64,000 nucleotides of DNA from an uncultured Candidatus Saccharibacteria bacterium. GTDB taxonomy: Bacteria > Patescibacteriota > Minisyncoccia > Phycocordibacterales > Phycocordibacteraceae. Positions 1 through 53,736 of this stretch are shown piece after piece (position 1 is the stretch's first letter; every line of letters begins with the position of its first letter). Below the pieces are notes generated by a model. That model was not told where the DNA came from, did not search any database, and saw only the letters and a list, made by a program, of their open reading frames with translations. The translations under genes and the position numbers were made by a program. The stretch spans positions 3,688 through 67,687 of the forward strand of contig CAZWKU010000001.1 of NCBI GenBank assembly GCA_964634595.1, in the 5' to 3' direction.

Positions 1-261
1 AGTGATCTGCCTAATGTCATCTACACTGTTGTTTGAGGCCGCGTCTATTTCGTACAGATCTTTTGCCGTGCAACCCACCTCACGCGCAAAGATGCGCGCA
101 AGCGATGTCTTGCCGAGCCCCCGGCTCCCAGCAAAAAGGTAGGCGTGCCCGATTTTCTTACTCTGAATAGCCTCCTCAAGCGGAGCAACCACCTGCTCCT
201 GCCCCATCACCTCTCCGAATTTTTGCGGGCGATATGCGCGATAGAGTGACTGCTCGGCCAT
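1..261 (-). CDS. dnaX: DNA polymerase III subunit gamma/tau, N-terminal fragment (continues beyond window start)
   Basis: Minus-strand translation from ATG at 261 gives MAEQSLYRAYRPQKFGEVMGQEQVV...HAYLFAGSRGLGKTSLARIFAREVGC, a clamp-loader AAA+ N-terminus with P-loop. The frame is open to position 1. Confidence 0.8.
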   Translation of the reverse strand, partial: MAEQSLYRAYRPQKFGEVMGQEQVVAPLEEAIQSKKIGHAYLFAGSRGLGKTSLARIFAREVGCTAKDLYEIDAASNNSVDDIRQIT

Positions 262-280
262 ACGAGACAGTATATAGGCG

Positions 281-1261
281 CTAGGCTCTAGGCACTAGCG
301 ACTCAAGTTCGGCTGCGCTTTCGGCCGCCATCAGCTTGGCACGGAGCTCTGCAGCGCCATCGAAACCTGTAACAAACGCTTTGATGTGTTTTTTAAGTAT
401 GGCAAATGATTTGGCTGGCGAGAGTTTTTCAAATGCATACGCGAGCTCTACGAGCGCGGCGAGTTTTTCTACAGTCTCTCGACTCTGCTCAGGATTATTT
501 TCGCTTCGCGCAAATAACCACGGGTTGCCGAAAATAGCGCGACCAAGCATCACTCCATCGCAACCCGTCTCTGCCACCCTAGCTTCTGCATCGGCTAAAT
601 CTTTTACATCACCGTTGCCTATCAAAAGCACGCTTGGATTAATTTTGTTTCTAATCTGTACCGCCTTTTGCATAAGCTCCCAGTGTGCGGGTACTGAGGA
701 CATTTCCTTGCGTGTACGCAGATGCAGCGTTATTGCCGCGGGCTCTGCTAAGAGAAGCTTCGGGAGCCACTCCTCAAGTACCTCGGTGTTGTAACCGATG
801 CGCGTTTTTACCGAGACCGGGAGCGTGGTCGCCGCTTGCGCGGCCCTAATTATCTCTACTGCAATCTCAGGGGTCTTAATAAGCGCCGCACCCGCCTTTT
901 GCTTTTCAATACTTCGGTCAGGGCACCCCATATTAATGTCGACACCATCGAAACCAAGCCCGTCCGCGAGCTTTGCGGCGTACGCGATCATCTCGGGTTT
1001 ACTCGAAAAAAACTGCGCAACCATCGGCCGCTCGGCCTCGCTGAACTGCAAATCACGCATCAAGGGATTCTCTATATTGAGGACTTTCTGAATCTCACGC
1101 AGGTGATACAGCCCGTCAGCCGAGACAAACTCTGTCCAGGTTACATCTGGCTTGCCATACTTAGCGATAAGCGCTCGGTACGCAGGGTCGGTCACGTCAG
1201 CCATCGGTGCCAGCACAAAAAAGGGTCTCGGCAACGCATCCCAAAACGAATTTTGCTTCAT
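281..1261 (-). CDS. tRNA-dihydrouridine synthase (Dus family)
   Basis: 326 aa. Contains LAPMADVTD, a GCP motif and the TIM-barrel flavoenzyme pattern typical of DusB-like proteins. Confidence 0.85.
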   Translation of the reverse strand: MKQNSFWDALPRPFFVLAPMADVTDPAYRALIAKYGKPDVTWTEFVSADGLYHLREIQKVLNIENPLMRDLQFSEAERPMVAQFFSSKPEMIAYAAKLADGLGFDGVDINMGCPDRSIEKQKAGAALIKTPEIAVEIIRAAQAATTLPVSVKTRIGYNTEVLEEWLPKLLLAEPAAITLHLRTRKEMSSVPAHWELMQKAVQIRNKINPSVLLIGNGDVKDLADAEARVAETGCDGVMLGRAIFGNPWLFARSENNPEQSRETVEKLAALVELAYAFEKLSPAKSFAILKKHIKAFVTGFDGAAELRAKLMAAESAAELESLVPRA

Positions 1262-2142
1262 ACTGTTGACTGCTGACTGTCTACTGTTTTCTTTTTTAAA
1301 TACACCTTGCCCGGGAAGCGCAAGTCAATATAGTCGAGTGCACCGCTTGAAAGATCGAGTTCACTTTTCGCTGAAATGAGATCAGCAAAAGCCGCAACTT
1401 CGCTACCCACCACATAGGTCACGCGTGTCCCGCTCGCAAGTATCAGATCAGCTTCGTCATCACGAAAAATAAGCTTTGTCACCGATGAGCCAAGCTCACC
1501 CACACGACGGGCGAAGTCAAACGCATCTGGGAGCGCCTCTGCGTGCTTAAGCGTAGCGCGCAGTGCGACCTCCCCACTCACCAGCGGGTCGTACACAGCA
1601 AATGAGTTCAATGTTGGGCTCGTTGACGCGGCCAGAGCAAAAATAAAACCCTCTGCATCAATGAAATAGCACTCCCCCTGCTCGGCACTTTCTGTACCAC
1701 CACACCACGTGGCGACCGCAGTGCGCCCATGCGTCTCGATAGCAATACTCGTGAGATTTATGCGACGCACGGAGACCGCCTGCACCCGAGCGTCGTGTGC
1801 AGCAAGTGCACGGCGTATTGCCCCAATGGGGAGAAAGAGTATCGAATCACGCGGGATAAGCCACGCATACGAACCGGTGAGAGCCGATGCGACCAGCGCT
1901 TCATGTTCAGTGTTCGCGGGCACTACCACAGTATGGGCAACGCGCACCGAGGGTTGCCAGGTAGCCCATACCCCCACCGCAAGTAGCACAATCGCGAGAA
2001 TGCTAAGAAGGATACTGAGTCGCTTGCGCGATCGGCGGCGGCGCTCCTTCAGTCGCCCCGTCTCACTCTCACTCACCCGGCGCTCTGATAACTTCTTTCC
2101 CCACATACTGAACCAAAGCCTCAGGCACACGAATCGAACCAT
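1258..2142 (-). CDS. ftsQ: cell division protein FtsQ/DivIB-like (POTRA domain). True start is probably the internal M near 2106.
   Basis: Has a basic N-terminus, one TM helix, then a POTRA-like segment (VRVAHTVVVPANTEHEALV...IRRALAAHDARVQAVSVRRINLTSIAIETHGRTAVATW). The longest ORF overlaps the serS stop. Confidence 0.55.
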   Translation of the reverse strand: MVRFVCLRLWFSMWGKKLSERRVSESETGRLKERRRRSRKRLSILLSILAIVLLAVGVWATWQPSVRVAHTVVVPANTEHEALVASALTGSYAWLIPRDSILFLPIGAIRRALAAHDARVQAVSVRRINLTSIAIETHGRTAVATWCGGTESAEQGECYFIDAEGFIFALAASTSPTLNSFAVYDPLVSGEVALRATLKHAEALPDAFDFARRVGELGSSVTKLIFRDDEADLILASGTRVTYVVGSEVAAFADLISAKSELDLSSGALDYIDLRFPGKVYLKKKTVDSQQSTV

Positions 2143-3352
2143 CAGGTTGCTGGTAATTCTCTACCAAAACCGCAAGAAAACGTGGCGTTGCAAGCGCGGT
2201 GTTATTAAGGGAGTGTGCAAACTTTAAGCTGCCGTCGGCGTCGCGATAGCGGATATTGAGGCGACGGGTCTGAAAATCGTGAAAATATGATGAGGAGTGT
2301 GTCTCGCGATAGCGATTTTCTGAAGGCATCCAGCACTCGATGTCATACTTCTTAACCTGGCCAAGCCCTAGGTCACCCCCGCAATTTACGACCACGTGGT
2401 AGGGGATCTTCAGAGCCTGAATTGCTTCTTCGGCATTTTGAGTAAGCTCTTCGTGGTGCTTCACACTTGCCTCATGTGAGGCTTCGCACAAAATGACCTG
2501 TTCAAATTTGTAAAACTCGTGCACACGCACCAACCCCTTGGTGTCTTTGCCGTGCGCCCCTGCCTCGCGCCTGAAACAGGGTGAAAAGGAGAAATATTTT
2601 ATCGGGAATTGCTTAGCGTCGACAACTTCGTCCATGTAGTAACCCATCGTGGCAACCTCGGCTGTGCCCGCGAGGTATTCATCATCCTGCGTCTTGTAGA
2701 GATCCTCTTCACTTTGAGGCAAATAGCCCGTGCCCATAAACGACTCGCGACGCACCAGCGAGGGCACGATCATGGGCGAAAAGCCCCCTTTTTTTGTGAA
2801 GTGATCAGAGAGAAAGTGCCAGAGCGCATACGAGAGGAGAGCGCCATCATTTTTTAAAAAGTACCCGCGAAATCCTGCCACCTTCGCTCCTCTATCAAAG
2901 TCAGCCATGTCGAGTTTTACCATGAGCTCTGCATGACTCTTGGGCTTCACGACTGGGGAGCCGTCGACTGACGGGCTACCCCACGTGCGCACCTCCATAT
3001 TTTCAGCGTCTGAATCACCCTCAGGCACTGACATATCCGGGATATTAGGCACCATGAGCATGAGCTCTCGCCATTCGTCCATTACTTTTTTAAGCTCTGC
3101 TTCGGTCTCGCCCATACCCGCCTTCAAGTGCTGCATTGCCTCAATAAGCTTTTCGCGCTCAGCGTCTCTCGCACGACTAATCTCTCCCGAAGCGCGATTT
3201 TGCTCAGCGCGTTTACCATCGAGCTCGCGACGTAACGCAAGGCGGCGATCGTCGACCGCAAGCAAACGATCAATATCTACAGTGATATGCTTTTTAACTG
3301 CCCCTGCTTTGACCAGGTCAGCGTTCTCTTTAATAAAATGAATATCAAGCAT
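2069..3352 (-). CDS. serS: seryl-tRNA synthetase
   Basis: 427 aa. Starts MLDIHFIKEN, has an N-terminal coiled-coil arm and class II catalytic motifs. Confidence 0.9.
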   Translation of the reverse strand: MLDIHFIKENADLVKAGAVKKHITVDIDRLLAVDDRRLALRRELDGKRAEQNRASGEISRARDAEREKLIEAMQHLKAGMGETEAELKKVMDEWRELMLMVPNIPDMSVPEGDSDAENMEVRTWGSPSVDGSPVVKPKSHAELMVKLDMADFDRGAKVAGFRGYFLKNDGALLSYALWHFLSDHFTKKGGFSPMIVPSLVRRESFMGTGYLPQSEEDLYKTQDDEYLAGTAEVATMGYYMDEVVDAKQFPIKYFSFSPCFRREAGAHGKDTKGLVRVHEFYKFEQVILCEASHEASVKHHEELTQNAEEAIQALKIPYHVVVNCGGDLGLGQVKKYDIECWMPSENRYRETHSSSYFHDFQTRRLNIRYRDADGSLKFAHSLNNTALATPRFLAVLVENYQQPDGSIRVPEALVQYVGKEVIRAPGE

Positions 3353-3413
3353 AAAATAGTCAGTGGTGCACCAGCATCAGTAGGCAGGAAATGCCATTGT
3401 AAGATAGTACCAT

Positions 3414-4268
3414 ATGGAGATGCAAACACTGCTTCGCGAGGACTTCCCCGGTGGGCTAGGGGAGCTACCACAGCCACCTGAAAAGCTCTGGCTCATGGGC
3501 ACACTCCCACCTGCGGGCACTAAATACCTAGCCGTTGTAGGCTCACGTGCGATGACGCGCTATGGACAAGAGGTGTGTCAAAAACTAATCGCCGGTCTTG
3601 CCGGCTACCCTATTTCTATAGTTTCAGGTCTCGCTCTTGGGGTAGATACCTGCGCGCATAAAGCGGCACTTGCAACGGGGCTCCACACGATCGCCTTCCC
3701 GGGTTCGGGAGTCGATGAGACGGTGCTTTACCCGCGCTCTAACCGCTCCTTCTCACAAGAGCTCCTCAAGGCTGGCGGCGCGCTTATTTCTGAATACGAG
3801 CCGAAGACGGCCTCACGGGTGCATTTTTTTCCCGAGCGTAATCGCCTCATGGTGGGTATTGCAGATGCGGTCCTCGTGATTGAAGCAGGAGAGAAGTCAG
3901 GCACCCTGATCACCGCACGACTCGCCAGTGAATACAGTAAAGAGTTGCTTTGTGTCCCCCACCGCATTGGCGACCCGCACGCGTTTGGGCCACACCTCTT
4001 TATCCGCCTTGGCGCCGCGCTGGTCTCAGAACCCATACATATACTTGAGGCACTCAAGATCGCGCCGCGTGGCGAAGCCGCGCGTCTTGAAGCTCCCAAA
4101 CTCGAGGGCGTCGAGAAAGATGTCTGGGATATCTTGCAAGCGCCCAAAACACGTGACGAGATCGTCCGCGAGGCCGAAGCAGAGCCCGGTGCGGTGCTTA
4201 CTGCACTCATTGCTCTCGAGCTGCGCGGCATCGCACGCGAGGAGTTCGGCTCCTGGCGCCGCATTTGA
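3414..4268 (+). CDS. dprA: DNA processing protein DprA (Smf)
   Basis: Contains LAVVGSRAMTRYG and SGLALGVDTCAHKAAL, a Rossmann-like DprA core. Confidence 0.85.
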   Translation: MEMQTLLREDFPGGLGELPQPPEKLWLMGTLPPAGTKYLAVVGSRAMTRYGQEVCQKLIAGLAGYPISIVSGLALGVDTCAHKAALATGLHTIAFPGSGVDETVLYPRSNRSFSQELLKAGGALISEYEPKTASRVHFFPERNRLMVGIADAVLVIEAGEKSGTLITARLASEYSKELLCVPHRIGDPHAFGPHLFIRLGAALVSEPIHILEALKIAPRGEAARLEAPKLEGVEKDVWDILQAPKTRDEIVREAEAEPGAVLTALIALELRGIAREEFGSWRRI

Positions 4269-4308
4269 CGAGCGTCGCAATTACCGAGTATAGTTAGTCA
4301 GGTGAACT

Positions 4309-4968
4309 TTGGAGGCAGTAGTGAAAAAGAAAGCAGAGAAAGCCCGTGCTCTCGGTGAGCGCGTCTATATTGTTGGTGACAATTTTGAAATTAGACCCGC
4401 CTTTGTAGCTGAAATCTTGTGCAATGGGGACACTTGTTCTTATCGACTACTGGGCAACAACTGTCTTGTAGAGAACGGCATACATTTCTTCAGCTTTGAC
4501 TCTGCGCGAGCAGAAGCGCACCGTCAACTCGCAGAAATGAAAAGTGACGTACTGAGGAGGCTTGCAGAACTTGAAGAAAAAGAGAGGGAACTGCAAGCCC
4601 TCCTGTCAATACCTCAAGACTCCGATCTCCCGACTGGCTATTCAGTTCCGAAAAAATACCGGGTACCAGGTGACTATGTATATACCGTAGTAACCCCTCC
4701 GACAGAGTCCATCTACAGTGAAAACACTAAACCCTACCCCTACTTTGTGCTTGAATGCAAGATTGAACGCGTCCGTCTTCAGCCAACGAGCGCTGGCGAC
4801 GTTCTCTACTTGACCGACGCTCACTACAATGTAAATACGCGTCTATTGTTCGACACTGTCGCAGAAGCAACGGCCGAGGCAGTACGCATCTTTGCTGAAG
4901 AGACAAGGGGCACCATTGCTCATAACAAGGTGCCCGAGGTCTCACGAAAAGGCCGAATGGTTCTGTGA
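4309..4968 (+). CDS. hypothetical protein
   Basis: 219 aa ORF. A GGAGG RBS at 4311-4315 sits before the GTG at 4321, so the start is TTG 4309 or GTG 4321. No recognisable domain. Confidence 0.5.
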   Translation: MEAVVKKKAEKARALGERVYIVGDNFEIRPAFVAEILCNGDTCSYRLLGNNCLVENGIHFFSFDSARAEAHRQLAEMKSDVLRRLAELEEKERELQALLSIPQDSDLPTGYSVPKKYRVPGDYVYTVVTPPTESIYSENTKPYPYFVLECKIERVRLQPTSAGDVLYLTDAHYNVNTRLLFDTVAEATAEAVRIFAEETRGTIAHNKVPEVSRKGRMVL

Positions 4969-4985
4969 TATCTCACGCGAGAAAA

Positions 4986-5010
4986 GGAGCCCTCACGGGC
5001 TCCTTTGTTT
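4986..5010 (+). terminator. rho-independent terminator
   Basis: Stem GGAGCCC, loop tcac, stem GGGCTCC, followed by TTTGTTT. Confidence 0.6.
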
Positions 5011-5113
5011 AGGTGTAAACCAATTCTCTCACCGCACCACGCTCTGGCTCGCGATATAGCATGTAGTTGGCGCCGCATATAATACTATGGTATAATAGTA
5101 ATGGAACGCAGGT

Positions 5114-5398
5114 ATGGAGGCGTCTATGAGTGCGCAACCTTTGCTTACCCCGTGGATTGCCTATGCGCATTGGCGGGGGTGGAGCGATAGAACTCCGTAT
5201 GAAAAATACACCCCTCTTGTCTTAGTGCTTTCTGCATTGGTATTCATCCTGCCCATCTTTCTGGGGATACTACTGGTGCTTCGGTACCCGGTACTCTCAG
5301 ACTTCATGTTGTCTCTGTTTCTCTACATGTTCTGGGTTCGAATTATCGATTTCGTCCTGTATTGCGCTCTGCGCATACACGAACCCCCCGAATCGTAA
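5114..5398 (+). CDS. small membrane protein (2 predicted TM helices), hypothetical
   Basis: 94 aa with two hydrophobic helices, followed by a terminator hairpin. Confidence 0.45.
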   Translation: MEASMSAQPLLTPWIAYAHWRGWSDRTPYEKYTPLVLVLSALVFILPIFLGILLVLRYPVLSDFMLSLFLYMFWVRIIDFVLYCALRIHEPPES

Positions 5399-5408
5399 AT
5401 GAGTACAT

Positions 5409-5443
5409 CGCCCGCGAGGACACCTCGCGGGCGAATTCTGTTT
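5409..5443 (+). terminator. rho-independent terminator
   Basis: Stem CGCCCGCGAGG, loop aca, stem CCTCGCGGGCG, then aattctgttt. Confidence 0.55.
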
Positions 5444-5545
5444 GCACATTTTCACTTTACCTTACGGTATCCTATAGACGATACTAAGGTAAATTAATGC
5501 TTCGTGCAGTCGGCTGTGTTGACATTTATATAGTGCTCGCGGTAA

Positions 5546-7942
5546 GTGTTAGTGGTGGCAAAGAAATTACTTATCGTCGAGTCTCCCACCAAGGCGCGCA
5601 CTATCGGGCTCTATCTGGGCAAGGAGTACGAGGTACTCGCCTCAGTAGGGCACGTGCGCGACCTCCCGAAGAGCAACAAAGACGCCGTCGCTATAGACGA
5701 TGGCTTTACCCCGCGCTATGTAGTCTCCCCTGAAAAACGCGAGGTGATAGAAAAGATTAAGCGCGCAACCGAGAGAGCGAGCGAGGTCTATCTCGCAACC
5801 GACCCCGACCGCGAAGGCGAGGCAATTGCCTGGCATATTAAGGAGGTTGCAGGGCTCAAAAAACCCAAACGGGTCGTCTTTCACGAGATAACTAAGGCAG
5901 CTATTGTAGAAGCGCTTGCTCACCCCCGTGCAATTGACGAAAACTTACGTCGCGCCCAGGAGGCACGGCGAGTACTTGATCGCATCGTAGGATACGACCT
6001 CTCCGGCTTAATTTGGAAGAAGGTCCGCTATGGCCTCTCGGCCGGCCGCGTGCAATCGCCAGCACTGCGCATCCTTGCTGAGCGTGAGCGCGAAATTAAA
6101 GCGTTTGTGCCTGTGGCCTACCACGTCCTTACCGCCGAGCTTACCGCGAAAGGCGAGTCGTTTAGTGCTACCTGCATCGAGCAACCTAAGACCCAGGCTG
6201 AGGCTGATGCGATAGTGGCACAAGGCCGCGCGGCGTCGTGGAGCGTAGGCGACATGAGCGAAAAGTCTGAAGAGCGCTCGCCCCGCCCACCCTTTACTAC
6301 CTCTACCCTCCAGCAATCAGCCTCGACGCGACTTGGGTTTGCCCCCTCGCGCGCTATGCGCGCCGCGCAAAAGCTCTACGAGGCCGGCCATATCACCTAC
6401 ATGCGCACCGACTCGGTGCATCTCTCGACTGAAGCGACAGCAAAGATGTGCTCGGTACTTGAGCAACAGTTTGGCAAAGACTATGTGCAATCGCGCGTGT
6501 ATAAAACCAAGAGTAAAAATGCGCAAGAGGCACATGAAGCGATACGCCCCACCGACCCAGGGCGAGCTAGCGCGGGTGCGACGCCAGACGAAGAGCGAGT
6601 CTATGAGCTCATTCGTACTCGCGCACTTGCCTCACAAATGGCGAGCGCCAAGGTACTGCGCACCACACTCACCGCAAAGGCGGGAGTCGACATACCTTTT
6701 TTCACGACCACGGGCTCACGGATCATGTTTGCAGGCTGGCTGGCGCTTGATACCCGCGCACGGGGCGAAGATGTTGAGCTCCCCAAGCTCGCTACCGGAG
6801 ACACACTCACGCTCCTCTCGCTCGCGGGCGAGGAGAAGCACACTGAGCCGCCTAACCGCTACACTGAAGCGGGGCTCATCAAAGAGCTTGAGAAGCGCGG
6901 CATCGGGCGCCCGTCGACCTACGCCTCTATTATGAAAACCATCCAAGATCGTGGGTATGTTGAGCGACAGGCGCGCACCCTCCTCCCGACCGCGACCGGC
7001 ATGGTCGTTTCAGGCTGGCTCGAGGAAAATTTTGCAGACTATATTAGCGACACTTTTACTGCGGAGATGGAGAACGAGCTTGACGAGATCGCACGAGGAG
7101 AGCGCGAGTATGAAAAAACTATGATCGACTTTTATGGACCCTTTGTAAAGGCTGTGAGAGCAAAGGAGAAACTCCCTAAAGCAACCAGCTTGGGCGATAC
7201 TCCAAAAGAGTTTCCCTGCCCACTGTGTGAGAGCCCTATGGAGTTTAAACTCGGTCGTGGCGGTGTCTTTATGAGCTGTAAGCGCTACCCTGAGTGCAAG
7301 GGCGCGCGCCGTGAAGACGGCGATGCACTAAAGGACGACGAGCCGATAGGTACTCATCCCCAAACGGGAGCACCTATTTATATTCGTACCGGGCGTTTTG
7401 GCCCCTATGTTGAGATGCCACTTGAGTCAAGCGATAGTAGCCCAGCACCAATACCAAGTGGGGAGAAGCCGAAAAAGAAAAGCAAGGGACGACCGAAGTC
7501 GGCCGCGAAGCGCGCTTCGATACCGCAGGGCAAGGACCCATCGACCGTGACACTTGAGGATGCTCTCAAATACCTCGCACTCCCGCGTGAACTTGGGATA
7601 CACTCTTCAACCGGCAAACCCGTGGTTGCCTCGGTAGGGCGCTTTGGCCCCTACGTTGGGCACGACGGCGACTTTCGCTCTATCAAAGCAAATACCGGCA
7701 AAGACCCCTACACCATCACACTCGATGAGGCACTCGTCCTACTTACAGAGCCGAAGCGGCCGCCAAAGGGCGTCGAGATACTCCGTGAAATTGGGCCCCA
7801 CCCCAAAACAAAGAAACCGATCACACTGTATAAATCGAAAAGTGGGACCTTTCTTAAAAAAGGATTGCGTCGCATCTACCTACCCGAGAGCACGCCGGCA
7901 GAGGCGTTTACTCCCGAGCAAGCCGCCGAGCTCCTGAAATGA
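5546..7942 (+). CDS. topA: DNA topoisomerase I
   Basis: TOPRIM N-terminus (LLIVESPTKARTIG...GHVRDLPKS), a zinc ribbon (CPLCESPMEFKLGRGGVFMSCKRYPEC) and three C-terminal GRFGPYV repeats with a lysine-rich tail. Confidence 0.95.
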   Translation: MLVVAKKLLIVESPTKARTIGLYLGKEYEVLASVGHVRDLPKSNKDAVAIDDGFTPRYVVSPEKREVIEKIKRATERASEVYLATDPDREGEAIAWHIKEVAGLKKPKRVVFHEITKAAIVEALAHPRAIDENLRRAQEARRVLDRIVGYDLSGLIWKKVRYGLSAGRVQSPALRILAEREREIKAFVPVAYHVLTAELTAKGESFSATCIEQPKTQAEADAIVAQGRAASWSVGDMSEKSEERSPRPPFTTSTLQQSASTRLGFAPSRAMRAAQKLYEAGHITYMRTDSVHLSTEATAKMCSVLEQQFGKDYVQSRVYKTKSKNAQEAHEAIRPTDPGRASAGATPDEERVYELIRTRALASQMASAKVLRTTLTAKAGVDIPFFTTTGSRIMFAGWLALDTRARGEDVELPKLATGDTLTLLSLAGEEKHTEPPNRYTEAGLIKELEKRGIGRPSTYASIMKTIQDRGYVERQARTLLPTATGMVVSGWLEENFADYISDTFTAEMENELDEIARGEREYEKTMIDFYGPFVKAVRAKEKLPKATSLGDTPKEFPCPLCESPMEFKLGRGGVFMSCKRYPECKGARREDGDALKDDEPIGTHPQTGAPIYIRTGRFGPYVEMPLESSDSSPAPIPSGEKPKKKSKGRPKSAAKRASIPQGKDPSTVTLEDALKYLALPRELGIHSSTGKPVVASVGRFGPYVGHDGDFRSIKANTGKDPYTITLDEALVLLTEPKRPPKGVEILREIGPHPKTKKPITLYKSKSGTFLKKGLRRIYLPESTPAEAFTPEQAAELLK

Positions 7943-7975
7943 AACACCGCGAGCATCCGCTCGCGGTGTTTTTTA
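7943..7975 (+). terminator. rho-independent terminator after topA
   Basis: Stem AACACCGCGAGC, loop atcc, stem GCTCGCGGTGTT, then TTTTT. Confidence 0.7.
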
Positions 7976-7984
7976 CGAAACACC

Positions 7985-8182
7985 CTACCAACCGAGACTG
8001 TTCACCGCCCGCAGTGTCTCACACTCTTCGGAAGATTTAGTCGTGACTATCATGCCGTCCCGTACCATTACACAGGGAGCACTCACTAGCGCACAACACA
8101 CTATACACACTTCTTTCGCAGGAGGAATTGGCTTGGCAGAGTGCCGAACACGAGAAGAGAGAAACGCGACCACAATACCCAT
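7985..8182 (-). CDS. small Cys-rich membrane protein, hypothetical (start trimmed to the RBS-supported ATG)
   Basis: AAGAGGAGG sits 6 nt before the ATG of MGIVVAFLSS...CIVCCALVSAPC. About 65 aa. Confidence 0.4.
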   Translation of the reverse strand: MGIVVAFLSSRVRHSAKPIPPAKEVCIVCCALVSAPCVMVRDGMIVTTKSSEECETLRAVNSLGW

Positions 8183-13561: not shown

Positions 13562-13645
13562 TGGTGCCGGGGGAGAGACTTGAACTCTCAAGACTTGCGT
13601 CGGTGGGTTTTGAATCCACTGCGTTTACCATTTCGCCACCCCGGC
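13562..13645 (-). tRNA. tRNA-Leu (anticodon CAA), class II
   Basis: Minus-strand sequence GCCGGGGTGGCGAAATGGTAAACGCAGTGGATTCAAAACCCAC...GAGAGTTCAAGTCTCTCCCCCGGCACCA. Anticodon loop UUCAAAA, long variable arm, T-arm GAGAG/TTCAAGT/CTCTC. Confidence 0.8.
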
Positions 13646-25313: not shown

Positions 25314-25405
25314 GCCAGGGTGATGGAATGGTAGACATAGAGGACTTAAAATCCTCCGAGGTCCTTAAAAGCCTCATGTGAGTTCGAGTCTCACCCCTGG
25401 TACCA
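25314..25405 (+). tRNA. tRNA-Leu (anticodon TAA), class II, CCA encoded
   Basis: GCCAGGG acceptor, anticodon stem GAGGA/TCCTC with loop CUUAAAA, long variable arm, T-arm GTGAG/TTCGAGT/CTCAC, ACCA end. Confidence 0.8.
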
Positions 25406-33841: not shown

Positions 33842-34207
33842 TTAGGTGCCAATGCCGCCAGTTACCGGATACTCTAACGGGCTTTCATCAAGTGGTACCG
33901 TATTCTTGATGATGTTCACGAGCCCCCAGACCGACACCATGACGAAAAATCCTATCAAGCCCCAGAGCATAAGATTACGACCCTTCTCTTTAACCTCATC
34001 ATTTGCGTAGCCCACGATAAAGGTCTGAAAGGCGCCCCACACAAAGACGATAAACGCGATAGCGAAGAGAACAGGTACCACTACATCATTGATGGTGTTG
34101 ATGATGAGACTACCGACCTCGCCGAGGTTGCTAACGACCGTTTGTGCCGAGGCAACAAGCGGGAAGGTCAAGAGGAGTCCGGCACCGATGGTAAGGGCTT
34201 TTTTCAT
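33842..34207 (-). CDS. small two-TM pilin-like membrane protein (array member 5)
   Basis: 121 aa. Signal peptide, then VVPVLFAIAFIVFVWG...EKGRNLMLWGLIGFFVMVSVWGLV. Confidence 0.5.
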   Translation of the reverse strand: MKKALTIGAGLLLTFPLVASAQTVVSNLGEVGSLIINTINDVVVPVLFAIAFIVFVWGAFQTFIVGYANDEVKEKGRNLMLWGLIGFFVMVSVWGLVNIIKNTVPLDESPLEYPVTGGIGT

Positions 34208-34277
34208 AATATGTATAAGTAATAACTAGAGTAATGATAGTCTGCCGCTAGATAAAGGCAATGAGCTCGTGTGGATA

Positions 34278-34814
34278 TCAGAGCTTCGGGTACGGCAAGG
34301 TGGAGTCAGATCTGGGGCCAACGCCTACATTCAAGAGCTCAACCCCCACATTTACTAGCCCCCAAAGTGAAAAGATAATAACGAAACCAATGACCCCATA
34401 GAGGACGAACTGCTTCCCCTCTTCGTGGTTTTTGTCGCTATCTCCCCCCTTGATAAAGTAGTTGTAGACTCCCCACAAAAATACAATAAAGGCAACAGCC
34501 GTGAGTAAGGGGACAAGGATATCGTTAATAAAGAACTTGATGTCGTTTGCGAAGCCTGCAAGGCGGGAGGTATTCAGCACGCCACCTCCCCCGCCACCAC
34601 CTGGCGCCTGACCTGTGCCTGTACTAGTCCCACGCACACAGGTGCCAGCCTTGCTCCCCTGCGGAAATTGAGTGTCGCAAGCCTCACCTGCAAGTGCCGA
34701 GCAGTCAGAAGCAGTATTGCACCCGGCTCCAACCGTAGCACTAGCAGTAGCGGGCAGCGCACTGACCCCTATCGAGCATGCAAAGAGAAGTGCAAAGAGC
34801 AAGAGTTTGCTCAT
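34278..34814 (-). CDS. pilin-like membrane protein with a Cys/Gly-rich N-terminal extracellular region (array member 4)
   Basis: Start MSKLLLF (trimmed from 34937). CNTASDCSALAGEACD...GGGGGGG, then LVPLLTAVAFIVFLWG...EEGKQFVLYGVIGFVIIFSLWGLV. Confidence 0.5.
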   Translation of the reverse strand: MSKLLLFALLFACSIGVSALPATASATVGAGCNTASDCSALAGEACDTQFPQGSKAGTCVRGTSTGTGQAPGGGGGGGVLNTSRLAGFANDIKFFINDILVPLLTAVAFIVFLWGVYNYFIKGGDSDKNHEEGKQFVLYGVIGFVIIFSLWGLVNVGVELLNVGVGPRSDSTLPYPKL

Positions 34815-34822
34815 AGTAGCTA

Positions 34823-35272
34823 TCAGATAGAGGCTGGGTACGGCGGACGCCCAATGCCCGCGAGGCCGAAGGTGTTTGCCACCACGAACACCAAACCCCA
34901 CACCGAAAGCATCACCACAAACCCGACAATCCCCCAAAGTATTAGCTGGTGAGCATTTGCCACCTCCTCTTCACCTCGCTTAAAGATGTAAGCGCGAAAG
35001 ACCCCCCACAAAAAGACAATGAAGGCTACCGCAAAGACGAGCGGCACTAAAACAAAATTGATCAACCAGATAAATTGACCGGCTACAACGCAGATCGTAT
35101 TAGTGCCGCATCCAAGCGTAAACGAGCCGATGCCTCCAACGCCAGAGCCCGACCCGATGCCAAAAAACCAACCGCCAGAGCCTACCCCGCCGACCACACT
35201 GGTCTGTGCCGCGGCAAGAACGGGAGTAAGAAAACTAAGTGTTGAGATTGTGATGCGGGTAAATATGTTCAT
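34823..35272 (-). CDS. pilin-like membrane protein with a Gly-rich N-terminal region (array member 3)
   Basis: 149 aa. Signal peptide, Gly-rich stretch, then LVPLVFAVAFIVFLWG...HQLILWGIVGFVVMLSVWGLV. Confidence 0.5.
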   Translation of the reverse strand: MNIFTRITISTLSFLTPVLAAAQTSVVGGVGSGGWFFGIGSGSGVGGIGSFTLGCGTNTICVVAGQFIWLINFVLVPLVFAVAFIVFLWGVFRAYIFKRGEEEVANAHQLILWGIVGFVVMLSVWGLVFVVANTFGLAGIGRPPYPASI

Positions 35273-35279
35273 GGCTCTA

Positions 35280-35534
35280 TTATGCAGGAGCCAGCCCCAG
35301 CGTGTCTAGGAGGATATACACTAACCCCCACACCGAGAACATAACAACCATCCCAAGAATACCCCAGAGCACAAACTCCCTCCCGTGGCGTCGGCCTTCG
35401 TCAGTGCCTGCTTCAATAAAAAAGAACCGTACTATCCCATACACTATGTATGCGAAGGCAAGCGCAATAATCGCTGGTATGACAAGCGTGTTTATAGCAC
35501 CCACGAGGCTCTCAATAAAAGTACGAAAGGTCAT
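35280..35534 (-). CDS. small two-TM pilin-like membrane protein (array member 2, start trimmed)
   Basis: VIPAIIALAFAYIVYG...RHGREFVLWGILGMVVMFSVWGLV. The longest ORF (to 35624) would overlap member 1. Confidence 0.45.
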   Translation of the reverse strand: MTFRTFIESLVGAINTLVIPAIIALAFAYIVYGIVRFFFIEAGTDEGRRHGREFVLWGILGMVVMFSVWGLVYILLDTLGLAPA

Positions 35535-35962
35535 GAGCCAACACTCAAAGCCTGCACGGTGGCCTCTATCCCAAGAGCAATGGCTTTCGAGCCAAGCAAG
35601 ACAAGTGCCCCGATAAGAGTCCACAGGAGTGCCTGTCGGGCCTCGGCTATTTTGTTCGGCTCATGAGAGTGGAGGACAAAGAGGTAGCCTATATATACCA
35701 CCATAAATACAATCGCTACCGAGCCAATGCGTATCACGAAATCAAGGATCTTGTTGAGGAGGTTCAAGATACAGGTCTGTACTGGAGTGCCCGTAGGGCA
35801 ACCACCCTGCAAAGGGTTTATGAGTTGTGTGCTTGGCGGTGGCATAAGATTGCCCGGCAATGAGCTTGGTGGTGGGACGAGCTGTGCAAACGCAGGGGTA
35901 ACGATAAAGAAAGAGAGAAGGACGACCGCTGACACTGTTTGTAGTATTTGCAAGCGTTTCAT
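35531..35962 (-). CDS. pilin-like membrane protein (array member 1, most divergent)
   Basis: 143 aa. Signal peptide, Pro-rich segment, then VAIVFMVVYIGYLFV...ARQALLWTLIGALVLLG. Confidence 0.4.
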   Translation of the reverse strand: MKRLQILQTVSAVVLLSFFIVTPAFAQLVPPPSSLPGNLMPPPSTQLINPLQGGCPTGTPVQTCILNLLNKILDFVIRIGSVAIVFMVVYIGYLFVLHSHEPNKIAEARQALLWTLIGALVLLGSKAIALGIEATVQALSVGS

Positions 35963-37263
35963 CGCGCAAAGAGGGCCGTGAGCGCACTCTCGGCAAGTGC
36001 CACTGCCCTAGTGATAGAGAGCCTGCCAGAGTTCACGTCGTTAATCATAGCGCTAAAGACGCTGTCGGTCTCTGCGGGCCCTGGGGACAGCCACCCGCGC
36101 GTGAAGAGCGCCGAATCGTAGGCAATAGCACTTACCGCATCAGAGGGGCGGTGCGCGAGAGCTCCGCGCACCGCAGGCGCGCGGAGCGTGTGGAGCGCCA
36201 GCAGTTGGTTATTCCCCACTTGCGTCAGCGCAACAGCTACTTGAAAGCCCCCTTCGTGGTTCTTTGCGCCCTTGGGGATCATAAACGCATAGAGGTGACC
36301 GTAGGTGGCCTTGGTTCCCCTTTCACTATATTGCGGCAATACGGCAACATCGAAATCAAGATTAGGGTTAGCCTCGCGCAGGTGACCGACCTCTGAGGCA
36401 TAGCCCAGATAAAATGCGAGATCTCCCTGCAAAAAGCGCTCTTGGGACCCTTCAAGCCCGGCATTCCACGAGTAGAGACTCTTCGAGGGATCAGCAAATT
36501 GGGTATAGAAGCGTACCACTGCCTCAGCCGGCGGGATACCGCTTTCAGCACGAGTGCCAAGATCAGCTCTCGGCTGACCAGTACTCACAATAACCGAGAG
36601 AGGCGCGCCCAACTGCATGAACAATGAGGAGAGAATCCCTCGAGCGTTCTGCACATTTGCATAGGTCCCAAACGCAACGAGACTCTTGTCGATGCCACCC
36701 GAAGGCGTGCGAGTCACTACGGCGTTTATATGACCTGAAAGCTCATCCCAGGTGAGGGGCGGTCGAACGATACCCGCCGAAGAGAGCATGGTGCGGTTGT
36801 AAAAAAGAACAAGCGGGTCGATGAGAATAGGGAGACCGAGCGACCCTGAGCCGTCGGGGAGTAAAAATATCTCACCTCCTGCGGTAAAAGCATCTTTAAA
36901 AGTCCGCTCGCTGACCCTTTCAACAGAAATCGAACGTACGTACGGCGCAAGGGCAGAGAGGTGCTCGTGAGAGGCAAGTACGAGATCAGGTGGCGTCCCC
37001 TGCGCAATAGCCGCGACTAACTCTTGGGGTAGTTGATTTGGCTCAAAATCTACATAGGTGACATTACCAAACGTCTGATCTGCTCTCCGCAAATTCTCGA
37101 GTGCCGCGTGCACCCCCTTTTCAGGTATTGAACCCCAAATCAGAACCGAGCCTACCCCCGCTGTACCCCCCTCAGGCCTGTAAAACGAAAAGACGGCCAC
37201 ACCAATGATTCCCGCGAGTGCGCATACTCCAAGCACTATCCCCTGAAACAGCGTTATCTTCAT
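35959..37263 (-). CDS. membrane-anchored extracellular solute-binding-protein-like protein
   Basis: 434 aa with an N-terminal TM helix and a periplasmic-binding-protein-like alpha/beta pattern. Overlaps both neighbours by 4 nt. Confidence 0.4.
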   Translation of the reverse strand: MKITLFQGIVLGVCALAGIIGVAVFSFYRPEGGTAGVGSVLIWGSIPEKGVHAALENLRRADQTFGNVTYVDFEPNQLPQELVAAIAQGTPPDLVLASHEHLSALAPYVRSISVERVSERTFKDAFTAGGEIFLLPDGSGSLGLPILIDPLVLFYNRTMLSSAGIVRPPLTWDELSGHINAVVTRTPSGGIDKSLVAFGTYANVQNARGILSSLFMQLGAPLSVIVSTGQPRADLGTRAESGIPPAEAVVRFYTQFADPSKSLYSWNAGLEGSQERFLQGDLAFYLGYASEVGHLREANPNLDFDVAVLPQYSERGTKATYGHLYAFMIPKGAKNHEGGFQVAVALTQVGNNQLLALHTLRAPAVRGALAHRPSDAVSAIAYDSALFTRGWLSPGPAETDSVFSAMINDVNSGRLSITRAVALAESALTALFAR

Positions 37264-37796
37264 ATGGTTGGTGTAGTAAATACTAGTGCATAGTGGTGCG
37301 GCCCGCCACGAAAATTCTTAACCTTCACAAATCCCGCGCCAATAAAAAGCTCCTCGGCCTCGCGCTCTCCCACCACCGCATCTGCCTTGGGGCCCATGCC
37401 GCCATAGGAGCCCGCCCAATCAACCACAAGAAGCTTTGCTCCCGGCTTTAAGATTCGCCGAATCTCGGCAATGAGCCCTGCGCGGTGCTCAACCTGAAAA
37501 AGGGCATTGGCGAGGATAGCTGCATCCATAGAATGGTCGCGTAACCCTGTCCCACCAGCCTTTTCAATATCGCCCCACACCGGCTCGATAGTGCCTCGAT
37601 GGTGCTTGTGCACACTCTCCTTAATATGCCTGAGCATGTCTTGTCGTACCTCGACCGCGTAGACCTTGCCTTCAGGCCCAACGACCGCAGCGGCCGCATG
37701 CGCATAGTGCCCAGCCCCAGAGCCAAGATCAGCGACCTTCATCCCGTCGCTAAGCGCCATCTGGAGAACATTCTCTCGAGGTTGTGAGAAATGCAT
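37260..37796 (-). CDS. class I SAM-dependent methyltransferase
   Basis: Motif I VADLGSGAGHYAHAAA, motif post-I LLVVDW. First gene of the operon that contains the pilin-like array. Confidence 0.7.
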   Translation of the reverse strand: MHFSQPRENVLQMALSDGMKVADLGSGAGHYAHAAAAVVGPEGKVYAVEVRQDMLRHIKESVHKHHRGTIEPVWGDIEKAGGTGLRDHSMDAAILANALFQVEHRAGLIAEIRRILKPGAKLLVVDWAGSYGGMGPKADAVVGEREAEELFIGAGFVKVKNFRGGPHHYALVFTTPTI

Positions 37797-37828
37797 TACT
37801 ATAAAAATAGCATCTTTAGCAGAGAGTT

Positions 37829-38557
37829 TTGTATACTACACACATGCCGATCTATTGTGAGACACCCGCGCTGGTTGCCAGCTTTGCCGTCGAGCCTATC
37901 AACACATGGAGCAACCTCTTTATCATTGCCGTCGGGCTCCTTGCGATAACCATAGTTGCACGGCGCCCAGGGCGGCCGCATGGGCGGTCGCTCTGGATAC
38001 TTGCTATCCTCCTCACCATAACGGGCGTAGGGTCATTTCTCTGGCACGGGTGGCGAGAGCCAGGCTTCCTTATCCTCGACGCGGTGCCTGGGGCACTCTT
38101 CCTTTTTATCGCGGCATATCTGTGGATGCGGCGTTTTTATTCGCGAACCGTTGCCCTTGTAGGCGTCATCGCCTTTGCGCTTCTTGAGGCACTCTCCGCC
38201 GCCTACGGCGCTGACGCACTCTCACACCAGTACGCCGTCGTGAGCATGGCACCCGTGCTCGCGCTCACCAGCGCTTGGCTTATCGCGCGAACCTACGGTG
38301 AGTCGTTGCGCGCCGCGGCACTTGGCGGTGGCGCACTCGCACTCGCACTTGCCGCAATTTATTTTCGCTCTATTGACCTTTCGGTGTGCGAGACCTTCGC
38401 GATAGGGACGCATTTCATCTGGCACCTACTCCTCTCGCTCTCTGCCCTTTTCACTATTTTGAGCCTTATAGTCATTGACTACTCACGCTACTTTTCAGCA
38501 CGTTCAAAAATCCGCATGGATGTCCACCACCAACCCCCACGACGCAACTCGCGCTGA
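37829..38557 (+). CDS. ceramidase-family (CREST-type) integral membrane hydrolase-like protein
   Basis: Seven predicted TM helices. N-terminal EPINTWSNL matches the alkaline ceramidase signature. Confidence 0.45.
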   Translation: MYTTHMPIYCETPALVASFAVEPINTWSNLFIIAVGLLAITIVARRPGRPHGRSLWILAILLTITGVGSFLWHGWREPGFLILDAVPGALFLFIAAYLWMRRFYSRTVALVGVIAFALLEALSAAYGADALSHQYAVVSMAPVLALTSAWLIARTYGESLRAAALGGGALALALAAIYFRSIDLSVCETFAIGTHFIWHLLLSLSALFTILSLIVIDYSRYFSARSKIRMDVHHQPPRRNSR

Positions 38558-38637
38558 CATATCCACAGCGGTTTTCTGACCGACAGGCGTACACTTATTT
38601 GTGTGCGGACAGATGTTTGGCACGCGACAGGAGAGAT

Positions 38638-38732
38638 GGGAGGTTGGCAGAGAGGCTTAATGCACTCGTTTTCCAAACGAGCGGGTGACGATTAAAGAAA
38701 CCCCGCAGGTTCGAATCCTGTACCTCCCGCCA
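38638..38732 (+). tRNA. tRNA with a class-II (long variable arm) structure and G73, apparent anticodon UCC. Isotype unresolved.
   Basis: GGGAGGT acceptor pairs perfectly with ACCTCCC, then G, then CCA. 3-bp D-stem GCA/TGC. Anticodon stem CTCGT/ACGAG with loop UUUCCAA. 23-nt variable arm. T-arm GCAGG/TTCGAAT/CCTGT. Confidence 0.6.
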
Positions 38733-38819
38733 CTGAAACTCCTGTCACGTGCCAAGGATCCGTCTCTAAATAACTATCTCTCGCGCAGGCCACTTAGGCT
38801 AGCAAATTGCTGTGGATAG

Positions 38820-41291
38820 TTAAAGGGCTACTAGGGAGGCAATGCTGTCGCCCTCGTAGAGCTTCATGATACGGACGCCCTGGGTGGCGCGGCCGAGCGA
38901 GGGAATTTCGGCGACACTGGTGCGGATTACCTGGCCTTTTTTAGAAACAACTACCAGCTCCTCTTCTTTCAGATCGCCCATGATCACGCGCGCGCCGATA
39001 ATCTCGCCCGTTTTCGCCGTTACCTCGGCGGTCTTAATGCCCGAGCCACCGCGACCCTGTATCTTGTACTCGTCTATCTCGGTGTGCTTGCCGTAGCCCT
39101 TTGCCATCACCACCAAGAGGTGTGCGCTCTTAGCCGCGGCAGCAGGTATAACCTCAGCTGAGACGACCTCGTCGCTCTTTTTTACCATGATCCCGCGTAC
39201 GCCCCCGGCAGTGCGGCCCATCTGGCGCACATCTGACTCGTCAAAGCGTATCGACTGCCCTTTCGAAGTCACGAGTGAGACGCTGTCGCCCTCGGCGGCG
39301 AGATTGGCCGAGACGAGCTTGTCGCCACTCTGAAGATTAATCGCGATGATGCCCGAACGACGCACATCGCTAAATGATTTAGCCGCAACTTTCTTAACCG
39401 TACCATCTCTAGTCACCAAAACCACCGAAAGTGCGTCCCATGCCGCCCCCTTTTGCACGGGCAAAATAGAGGTTACCCGCTCCTCACCTGCGAGCGGCAA
39501 AAAGTTCATGATGCTCTTACCCTTAGTCGCGCGCTTGCCTTCGGGGATGTCATACATCTTTGCTTGGTACACCTTGCCGTAGTCAGTAAAGAAGAGGAGG
39601 TCAGCGTGTGCTGAAGCAACCAAGAAATGCGTCACGATATCTTCTTCTTTCGTTGCCATGTCCACCACACCCACGCCACCGCGCTTTTGGCGACGATACT
39701 CATCGGGGTTCGTGCGCTTTACATACCCACCCTGCGTGAGGACAAGCATTGAGTCTTCATCGGGCACCAAGTCTTCAACCGAAATATTCTTTACCCCGCC
39801 CTTTACGATGCGGGTACGACGGTCATCACCATACTTCTCGCTCACCTCCTTGAGCTCGTCCTTTACCACGCCCAAAATCTTTTTCGCAGATGAGAGAATA
39901 TCGGCGAGTTTCTTAATAATGCCTTGCACCTCGGCGAGCTCGTCTTCGATCTTCTTGCGCTCAAGGCCCGCAAGCTTCGATAGGCGCATCTCGAGGATAG
40001 CGGCAGCCTGCAACTCAGAGAACCTAAACTTCTTTTGGAGCTCGAGAGACGCGGTGGGCACGTCCGCAGCTTTTTTTATTATCGCTATAACCTCATCGAT
40101 ATGGTCGAGCGCCTTTGAGAGCCCGAGGAGGATATGCTCACGCGCCTCAGCTTGCTTTAAGTCAAACTCGGTACGACGCTTCACTACCTCGCGGCGGTGC
40201 GCCACAAAATGCTCGAGCATGCTCTTCAATGAGAGTGTCTGCGGCACCCCATCAACCAGCGCAAGCATGTTGTAGTGAAATGCTGACTCGAGCTCGGTAT
40301 ATTTGTAGATGTTATTTAAAACTGCCTGCGGGTGCGCCGTGCCCTTAAGCTCAACCACGACACGGATATCTGCGGTAGACTCGTCGCGCAAATCGCGAAT
40401 ACCCTCGATCTTTTTTTCGTGCACCAACTCGGCAATTCTCGTAATTAGCTCTGCCTTGTTAACGCGATACGGTATCGAGGTTATAATTATTTTCGACTCC
40501 TTTTTGCCGTCATCAACAATCTCAGCTTCGCCCCGCACGATAACCGGCCCCTTGCCATTGGCATAGGCGTGCTTGATATCTGCCTGATTAAACGCGACCC
40601 CTCCGAGCGGGAAATCTGGACCCTTCACAAACTGCAATAAATCTTCAGTAGCCGCGTCTGGAGTGTCTATTAAATGAATAGTGGCCTCTATCACCTCCCT
40701 GAGATTGTGGGGTGGGATGTTGGTTGCCATACCTACCGCAATCCCCAAGGTGCCATTTAAAAGGAGGTTCGGTACTGCCGCAGGTAACACCCTGGGCTCT
40801 TGCCGTGTCGCATCATAGTTTGGATTCCAGGCGACAGTCTCTTTATCAAGATCCTTGAGGAGATCGTCGGCAAGGCGGCTCATTTTTGCCTCGGTATAGC
40901 GCATCGCGGCAGGCGAGTCACCGTCTACAGAGCCGAAGTTACCTTGCCCTAAGACCAGCGGGTAGCGATATGAAAACTCTTGTGCCATTTTGGTCATTGA
41001 GTCATACACGGCGACATCACCGTGTGGGTGATACTTACCAAGCACGTCGCCCACCACCAGCGCCGACTTACGAAATTTTGCTCCGGGCGCAAGCCCGAGT
41101 TCGCGCATCGCGTAGAGGATGCGACGATGAACGGGCTTCAACCCGTCGCGCACGTCGGGCAGGGCGCGCGACGTTATTACCGACATGGCGTAGTCGAGGT
41201 ACGAGGTGCGCATCTCGCCGACAATCGGCTGAGGGATAACTGACCCTCCGCCTTGCGCGCTCGACGCTTCTTTCTCTACTTTCTTAGCCAT
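38820..41291 (-). CDS. gyrA: DNA gyrase subunit A
   Basis: [29 protein letters not shown] with the active-site Tyr region, plus a C-terminal beta-pinwheel. Confidence 0.95.
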
Positions 41292-53623: not shown

Positions 53624-53710
53624 GGAGAGGTGTCAGAGTGGTCGAATGAACCGGTTTCGAAAACCGGCAGGGGCGAAAGCTCCTCGGGAGTTCGAATCTC
53701 CCCCTCTCCG
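53624..53710 (+). tRNA. tRNA-Ser (anticodon CGA), class II
   Basis: GGAGAGG acceptor, anticodon stem CCGGT/ACCGG with loop UUCGAAA, long variable arm, T-arm GGGAG/TTCGAAT/CTCCC, G73. Confidence 0.85.
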
Positions 53711-53736
53711 CAAGAGCGTGCTACTGGTAGCACTAT

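Follow-up and report, generated by a model that had tools for sequence, protein, structure and literature searches.

The 64,000-nt stretch of contig CAZWKU010000001.1 (assembly GCA_964634595.1) analysed here, hereafter referred to as the window, harbours at positions 38638-38732 of its forward strand a tRNA gene which raises a twofold question: which amino acid would be delivered by a tRNA that combines a serine-type body with the anticodon UCC, and does the host still read the glycine codons GGA and GGG as glycine? A sequence-only reading of the locus had proposed a tRNA inserting serine at glycine codons, described as Sec-like or of the allo-tRNA type, an unusual tRNA-Gly, or a regulatory RNA or pseudogene. 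As judged from its sequence, the gene combines a body of serine identity with an anticodon for glycine, and we favour, with moderate confidence, the view that it represents a young, strain-specific copy of a canonical bacterial tRNA-Ser gene (acceptor/T branch 7/5), the anticodon of which has been switched to UCC.

Structure of the gene and register of the anticodon

ARAGORN and the Rfam tRNA model both recognise in this interval an intact 95-nt class-II tRNA gene with the anticodon UCC (the arms are listed in Table 1). ARAGORN, whose bounds coincide exactly with 38638-38732, labels the gene tRNA-Gly(tcc), and the match to Rfam RF00005 reaches 52.9 bits, the gathering threshold being 29 (E-value 1.5e-8 for the whole window). 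In the Rfam alignment UUUCCAA constitutes a 7-nt anticodon loop in the standard register, set in the arm CUCGU-UUUCCAA-ACGAG, and since both programs give UCC, an alternative register yielding a Ser, Leu or Tyr anticodon was rejected. The sequence-only reading, which had placed UCC in the sole canonical anticodon loop and had proposed an ARAGORN run as a check, is borne out on this point by both programs.

The four stems of the tRNA are perfect or nearly so, the D stem being formed by G10 C11 A12 and U23 G24 C25. U8 and G9 are present, and the bases engaged in tertiary contacts (U8, A14, G15-C48, G18, G19 and the T loop UUCGAAU) are all intact. The anticodon arm forms a perfect 7-bp palindrome (CTCGTTT/AAACGAG) centred on TCC. 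The loop of the variable arm is unusually large, exceeding that of tRNA-Ser in the alignments by 5-8 bases. A 3' CCA is encoded in three of the ten tRNA genes of the window, namely two tRNA-Leu genes (13562-13645 and 25314-25405) and the gene studied here. The acceptor stem, G73, CCA, D stem, 23-nt variable arm and T arm were found in the sequence just as they had been described in the sequence-only reading, and so was the G73 class-II tRNA-Ser(CGA) located elsewhere in the window.

Part of the variable-arm loop, GUGACGAUUAAAGAAA (38686-38701), has some weak similarity to a C/D-box RNA (snoZ188) in the region of the C box. A C/D-box or k-turn-like motif was nevertheless rejected, the sole match (16.5 bits, E-value 0.74) not being significant.

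Amino acid identity

The published determinants of bacterial tRNA-Ser comprise G73, C72, G2-C71, R4-Y69, C11-G24, a large variable region and G30-C40 (Table 1 of PMC9976931). All seven are found in the gene, the fourth as A4-U69; the large variable region is represented by a stem-loop, though one with an atypical 13-nt loop. What the gene lacks is an anticodon for serine codons (NGA or GCU), in the place of which UCC is found. Because the anticodon is ignored by seryl-tRNA synthetase (SerRS; PMC9976931), we infer that serine would be loaded onto the transcript. The bacterial glycine set, by comparison, consists of U73, G1-C72, C2-G71, G3-C70, C35 and C36 (Table 1 of PMC9976931); G1-C72, G3-C70, C35 and C36 are present, and the gene fails at the remaining two positions, having G73 instead of U73 and G2-C71 instead of C2-G71. 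The latter pair is listed as a SerRS antideterminant in Escherichia coli tRNA-Leu (PMC9976931), and this antideterminant is absent from the gene as well.

Similarity searches point in the same direction. The gene has 183 full-length blastn matches in GenBank phages, the best of the 25 listed being 74.7% identical, and the features annotated under 17 of these 25 are all tRNA-Ser, in one case jointly with tRNA-OTHER. The 18-mer of the D arm, GGCAGAGAGGCTTAATGC, occurs exactly at 22 IMG/VR loci; at 15 of them ARAGORN predicts a tRNA (12 tRNA-Ser and 3 unclassified). When the anticodon was masked and the gene compared with 473 locally collected tRNAs, a set biased by the manner in which the loci were collected, tRNA-Ser accounted for 11 of its 12 closest neighbours; the remaining one, of viral origin, shares the D arm but is unclassified. 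A blastn search of the gene against E. coli genomes gave no match.

In the three unclassified tRNAs from IMG/VR (L159, L163 and L172), which are Ser-like, the exact D arm is combined with irregular anticodon loops that ARAGORN is unable to classify. In addition, of the three base pairs to which rejection by EF-Tu is ascribed in E. coli tRNA-Sec (PMC9976931), two are present in the T arm, G49.U65 and C50-G64; the same T arm is also present in ordinary phage tRNAs (L143, L008), so these pairs carry little weight as evidence.

Long-armed tRNAs with UCC anticodons do exist. They were exposed by a first broad pattern scan of viral sequences, most of the matches listed being noise, and they reside mainly in the tRNA arrays of large phage contigs. 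Among the 23 distinct long tRNAs with glycine anticodons in the collected loci, 19 have G1-C72, C2-G71 and U73. The only intact case with G2-C71 and G73 in this collection is the gene described here; two other long tRNAs with glycine anticodons (L150 and L140) are degenerate or ambiguous. The long-armed phage tRNA-Gly(UCC) resembles our gene in overall shape, C11-G24, G30-C40 and the anticodon itself, and in some cases in the T arm, but carries C2-G71 and U73 where the latter carries G2-C71 and G73.

Several observations were made on these loci in passing. Many long-armed tRNAs of 82-96 nt with a Ser-like core (Table 1) reside on contigs of large phages and on some metagenome contigs; their anticodons include those for Gly, Thr, Lys, Gln, Pro, Val, Arg and Asn, and one locus (L008) holds both a 74-nt and an 88-nt tRNA-Gly(UCC). 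A literature search found no paper describing the long-armed, Ser-core non-Ser tRNAs of phage contigs. The only other G73 Ser-like UCC tRNA of the metagenome scan (L150, MWWE01003171.1, 1625-1710, minus strand) looks degenerate, its acceptor stem having two mismatches at the top and its anticodon stem one. Near position 9487 of JAEHJW020008613.1 (L148) ARAGORN predicts a tRNA with the anticodon CUA ("tRNA-Pyl"), possibly an amber suppressor, in an array which also holds a long-armed tRNA-Gly(UCC).

Codon usage and the genetic code

Should the tRNA be charged with serine and participate in translation, its effect would be expected at GGA and GGG. In the 52 long open reading frames (ORFs) of the window these codons account for 143 (11%) and 295 (24%) of the 1252 glycine codons, respectively. 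Their joint share of 35% compares with 23-37% for the same genes in five relatives, which gives no indication of avoidance. In the orthologue alignments, GGA sites are matched by glycine in 52 and by serine in 7 of the 85 aligned residues, GGG sites by glycine in 169 and by serine in 7 of 207, and this pattern resembles that at GGC and GGU. In gyrA, 11 of the 15 GGG codons stand in columns that are glycine across all 119 homologues. A reassignment of GGA and GGG to serine was therefore rejected: the codons occupy conserved glycine sites, they are undepleted, and the tRNA is missing in relatives. To all appearances of these alignments the host still reads both codons as glycine and its code is unchanged. 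As far as the window is concerned, and this is the scope to which the statement applies, ARAGORN detected no other tRNA-Gly.

Conservation and distribution

Nine related loci were collected by means of GyrA and ceramidase-family homologues, and the tRNA is found in none of them. In L002 and L003 (85% GyrA identity) the methyltransferase gene follows 50 nt past gyrA; L005 and L006 (89%) contain two small ORFs in the gap and L001 (86%) four other ORFs, and the sequence found in L004 (90%) is unrelated. In L131 a ceramidase-family gene (57% identity) lies beside the methyltransferase gene, this locus ending 136 nt past the gene, and L181 likewise has the ceramidase-family gene with no adjoining tRNA. 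As the contents of the gap differ among relatives, the region between gyrA and the methyltransferase gene (37797-38819) is a hypervariable hotspot in Kaiserbacteria. Nothing at all is present there in one relative; small ORFs, a gene with a PaaX_M domain or a ceramidase-family gene are present in others.

The sequence-only reading had itself named absence from close relatives as an outcome that would speak against it. Such absence is what was found, and the gene hence does not belong to a conserved decoding system. Wider scans for exact patterns agree with this. A search of 185,579 GTDB species genomes with the anticodon arm, allowing eight possible triplets, together with the T loop produced no homologue, only two unrelated tRNA-Ser(UGA) genes being matched. 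In the JGI metagenomes the strict UCC arm had no matches, and a generic combination of a Ser-type D loop, UCC and a long arm retrieved 22 loci with no homologue among them; the 3' half of the tRNA had no matches in IMG/VR. The best reading of these data is that the tRNA is strain-specific and probably young.

Among the loci collected, positions 1-8000 of CAXNIC010000019.1 (L127), assigned to an "Alphaproteobacteria" metagenome-assembled genome, form a very dense array with 38 tRNA genes in 8 kb.

Inverted-repeat flanks

A long inverted repeat around the gene had been overlooked in the sequence-only reading. The whole gap from the stop codon of the ceramidase-family ORF to that of gyrA (38555-38822) is an imperfect palindrome of ∼260 nt with the tRNA in its centre, and the two flanks, ∼80 nt per side, align as inverted copies of each other. 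The predicted fold of this region has a free energy of -112 kcal/mol (z-score -7.2), the leader/trailer duplex contributing a value of -42 kcal/mol (z-score -6.65) when considered by itself. Such a helix is not a general trait of the tRNA genes of the window, as the other nine are without one.

Within the window neither repeat arm has a second copy, and a multi-copy miniature inverted-repeat transposable element was rejected on that basis. Scanning IMG/VR with the repeat arm returned one match, which was judged to be due to chance, and no target-site duplication is visible at the locus. In the hairpin of ∼260 nt formed by the inverted flanks the tRNA occupies the tip. The hairpin may serve as a processing stem of the RNase III type or as a bidirectional terminator, or it may mark the ends of inserted DNA.

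Neighbouring genes and host

The coordinates of the features discussed are collected in Table 1. The ceramidase-family ORF lies 80 nt upstream of the tRNA in the same orientation; only 8 homologues of it were found by a word-indexed protein search, and it is an accessory gene of the variable gap, which it shares with the tRNA. On the other side, the tRNA ends 87 nt from the stop codon of gyrA. The sequence-only reading had put the gene immediately downstream of gyrA, which is mistaken as to strand: gyrA is encoded on the minus strand and the tRNA on the plus strand, the two genes being convergent. No recombinase, transposase or transferase gene adjoining the tRNA was detected by Pfam.

The host, assigned here to the Kaiserbacteria, is a bacterium of the candidate phyla radiation (CPR) with a G+C content of 52%. 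The GyrA homologues that are 84-90% identical bear the names Candidatus Kaiserbacteria, Paceibacterota or Parcubacteria. A run of small PF18895 (T4SS-pilin) genes occupies positions 33842-35962 of the window, and in relatives this run is conserved beside the solute-binding-protein gene.

Table 1. Features of the tRNA gene, its surroundings and the loci used for comparison.
Feature	Position	Strand	Remarks
Acceptor stem GGGAGGT/ACCTCCC	38638-38644 and 38722-38728	+	perfect 7 bp; sequence
D arm GCA-GAGAGGCUUAA-UGC	38647-38663	+	3-bp stem, 11-nt loop, C11-G24, serine-type
Anticodon arm CTCGT-TTTCCAA-ACGAG	38665-38681	+	G30-C40; anticodon TCC at 38672-38674
Variable arm CGGGUGACGAUUAAAGAAACCCC	38682-38704	+	23 nt; 4-bp stem GGGU/ACCC and 13-nt A/U-rich loop; RNAfold
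T arm GCAGG-UUCGAAU-CCUGU	38705-38721	+	one G49.U65 wobble
3' acceptor strand ACCUCCC with discriminator G73	38722-38729	+	gives G1-C72, G2-C71, G3-C70 and A4-U69 with 38638-38644
G73 and encoded CCA	38729 and 38730-38732	+	sequence
Outer inverted repeat, left arm	38560-38577		starts 2 nt past the stop of the ceramidase-family ORF; 18 nt, 83% complementary
Inner inverted repeat, left arm	38608-38633		pairs with 38739-38764; repeat search, 26 nt, 85% complementary
Inner inverted repeat, right arm	38739-38764		
Outer inverted repeat, right arm	38801-38818		ends 1 nt before the gyrA stop codon
S-adenosylmethionine (SAM) methyltransferase gene	37260-37796	-	conserved anchor at the other side of the gap; Pfam; synteny in L001, L002, L003, L005, L006, L131
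Ceramidase-family (PF05875) membrane-protein ORF	37829-38557	+	Pfam E-value 1.6e-14
gyrA	38820-41291	-	anchor at one side of the variable gap; Pfam
tRNA-Ser(CGA)	53624-53711	+	canonical, internal comparator; ARAGORN; class-II, G73, as in the gene studied
Loci with long-armed Ser-core tRNAs	L008 (2699-5197), L032, L060, L066, L083, L088, L105, L141, L143/L148, L149/L153, L155		

Origin of the anticodon

Two routes to the switched anticodon can be envisaged. In the first, a tRNA-Ser(UGA) would have acquired two adjacent substitutions, G35C and A36C (GA to CC). A stem identical to that of our gene, with the loop TTTGAAA, occurs in the tRNA-Ser(UGA) of two GTDB genomes, and one of these genes is also the second-closest overall match. 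In the second route, a single inversion of the 3-nt anticodon within the palindromic arm of a tRNA-Ser(GGA) would have converted GGA to UCC; the reverse complement of the arm, CTCGT-TTGGAAA-ACGAG, is found as anticodon arm in a tRNA-Ser(GGA) of phage origin (L104). An inversion as the single origin was not found preferable to the two substitutions, and as regards the likely origin neither route is preferred over the other.

Provided that the precursor is processed and that EF-Tu and the ribosome accept the mature tRNA, serine would be inserted at GGA and, by U34 wobble, at GGG. In this event the gene would encode a missense tRNA that substitutes serine for glycine at a low level, in competition with the normal tRNA-Gly.

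Several points weigh against a switched tRNA-Ser of this kind. Serine at about one third of the glycine codons should be harmful, which speaks for a gene that is little active or short-lived in evolution. The 26-bp leader/trailer helix, separated from the tRNA by 4 nt on the 5' side and 6 nt on the 3' side, could block RNase P or 3' processing, and the 4-bp stem and 13-nt loop of the variable arm could weaken the shape-dependent binding of SerRS. The rarity of the gene rests on exact-pattern scans, by which diverged copies can be missed. Finally, the three assemblies in which the region is found may derive from one sample set or share reads, so that their agreement speaks for independence of the assembler only. 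The lack of conservation and of a codon-usage response fits a recent arrival or low activity.

Alternative explanations

A silent or effectively dead gene, that is, an unmatured or barely expressed copy of a switched tRNA-Ser carried as a neutral passenger heading for loss, is an alternative to be taken seriously, though we consider it rather unlikely. Locking by the strong flanking helix, unique to this tRNA, or the lack of a promoter of its own may be the cause of such silence; no sigma-70-like promoter is present in the 80 nt upstream, the promoter scan not being valid for CPR bacteria. None of the relatives examined has the gene, which has been seen only once; the genomic codon usage shows no response, the loop of the variable arm is odd in its size, and L150, the one further Ser-like UCC tRNA with G73 that was found, shows clear degeneration. 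On the other hand, the stems and the tertiary-contact bases of our gene have been kept, CCA is encoded, and co-transcription with the upstream ORF is possible, quite apart from the invalidity of the promoter scan.

A more far-reaching view, according to which the gene is a working and retained Gly-to-Ser missense tRNA on a hairpin-bounded, possibly mobile or invertible cassette, or else a first step of serine-to-glycine remolding, seems improbable. If this were true, the same path of remolding could have given rise to the Ser-core long-armed tRNA-Gly(UCC) of large-phage arrays.

Equally doubtful is a tRNA-shaped element outside translation, such as the cargo or end structure of a small, mobile or invertible cassette bounded by the repeats, an integration site, an aminoacyl donor to a tRNA-dependent transferase, or a signal by which the transcripts of the convergent genes are processed or terminated. 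The inverted flanks of ∼80 nt span the distance exactly from stop codon to stop codon, the content of the hotspot is different in every relative, some allo-tRNA-like genes are tied to transposons or toxin-antitoxin systems (PMC7609411), and short contigs of other assemblies break just past the right arm. The repeat arms, however, are single-copy in the window, the lone viral-contig match is due to chance, no recombinase, transposase or transferase gene adjoins the tRNA, and no target-site duplication was seen.

In two short contigs from other assemblies of the region (L129 and L130) the sequence breaks off shortly beyond the right repeat arm, after 30-50 nt of the 3' end of gyrA, which points to a branching of the assembly graph there, caused by differences at the hotspot between co-existing strains.

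A genuine tRNA-Gly(UCC), charged by glycyl-tRNA synthetase and possessing its long variable arm by chance, appears very improbable. Such a tRNA would account for C35, C36, G1-C72 and G3-C70, and the long-armed tRNA-Gly(UCC) of phage arrays and metagenomes demonstrates that a long arm is compatible with glycine identity. Yet these natural long-armed tRNA-Gly keep the glycine acceptor end in 19 of 23 cases and our gene does not, for which reason we disfavour the odd tRNA-Gly proposed as the second possibility in the sequence-only reading. The same acceptor rule serves in the Codetta study to recognise the tRNA-Gly(UCA) of other CPR lineages (PMC8629427), G2-C71 and G73 are positive signals for SerRS, to which no C2-G71 is opposed, and relatives decode GGA and GGG without the gene.

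An artefact, in which a hairpin-driven chimera flipped or altered the anticodon triplet, can practically be dismissed: the anticodon does lie in a 7-bp palindrome within a large palindrome, and such structures promote template switching in amplification, but the 262-nt intergenic region shows no base difference between three assemblies produced by different assemblers, being 100% identical, UCC included, in Logan ERR3094294 and ENA ERZ27247820 (MEGAHIT-style), and a 3-nt change in a 17-nt arm fits within single reads and k-mers.

Relation to known systems

The young, switched tRNA-Ser that we favour is reminiscent of the allo-tRNAs, which combine serine identity elements with non-serine anticodons covering 35 codons (Mukai et al. 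2017, PMC5389517; reviewed in PMC7609411), some of them inserting serine at sense codons in E. coli and some being linked to mobile elements (PMC5389517, PMC7609411). Like these, our gene is bacterial and joins serine identity elements to a non-serine anticodon. The allo-tRNAs, however, have 8/4 or 9/3 branches by definition (PMC5389517) and come from Clostridia, Proteobacteria and Acidobacteria, whereas our gene has a 7/5 branch and resides in a CPR bacterium; it was hence rejected as an allo-tRNA, and in the text of PMC5389517 that was searched no allo-tRNA with UCC is mentioned. A tRNA-Sec was rejected as well, given the 7/5 branch and UCC as opposed to a 13-bp 8/5 branch and UCA, and neither Rfam nor ARAGORN reports a tRNA-Sec. 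Of the three possibilities raised in the sequence-only reading, a tRNA that could insert serine at glycine codons fits best, its serine body with a glycine anticodon being backed by the published identity sets and the similarity searches; the Sec-like and allo-tRNA labels attached to it fail on account of the branch.

A serine body with a foreign anticodon is also known from variants of tRNA-Ser, such as human tRNA-Ser-AGA G35A and the engineered tRNA-Ser(UGG) (PMC12993449, PMC6827378), and there too the mechanism depends on the indifference of SerRS to the anticodon. These are one base away from their parent and have been shown to mistranslate, whereas our gene is at least two bases away from any serine anticodon, belongs to a CPR host and is known from its sequence. 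The nev-tRNAs of nematodes (Hamashima et al. 2012, PMC3333845) share with it the class-II shape and a glycine anticodon, CCC in their case; they are charged according to the body, not the anticodon, and decode a glycine codon as another amino acid in vitro (PMC3333845). Our gene is bacterial, serine-type and unconserved, whereas the nev-tRNAs belong to eukaryotes, go back to tRNA-Leu, receive leucine and are conserved in nematodes. In alloacceptor remolding (PMC4783518) a tRNA likewise acquires the anticodon of a foreign family on a body that is still parent-like. That process ends in charging according to the new anticodon and in the loss of the old gene; since the acceptor identity of our gene is unchanged, it would represent the first step of remolding at most.

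Biological significance

A single unconserved gene is a curiosity and no evidence for a new genetic code. It calls for caution in the automatic annotation of tRNAs, the ARAGORN label being tRNA-Gly. The comparison with the long-armed tRNA-Gly of phages indicates that two changes at the acceptor end separate a tRNA that reads glycine and carries serine from one that reads glycine and carries glycine. If active, the gene would be a natural bacterial case of an ordinary 7/5 tRNA-Ser placing serine at glycine codons, and would join the few natural mistranslators (allo-tRNAs, nev-tRNAs and the human tRNA-Ser variants), in a CPR host whose tiny genome should make proteome-wide errors costly.

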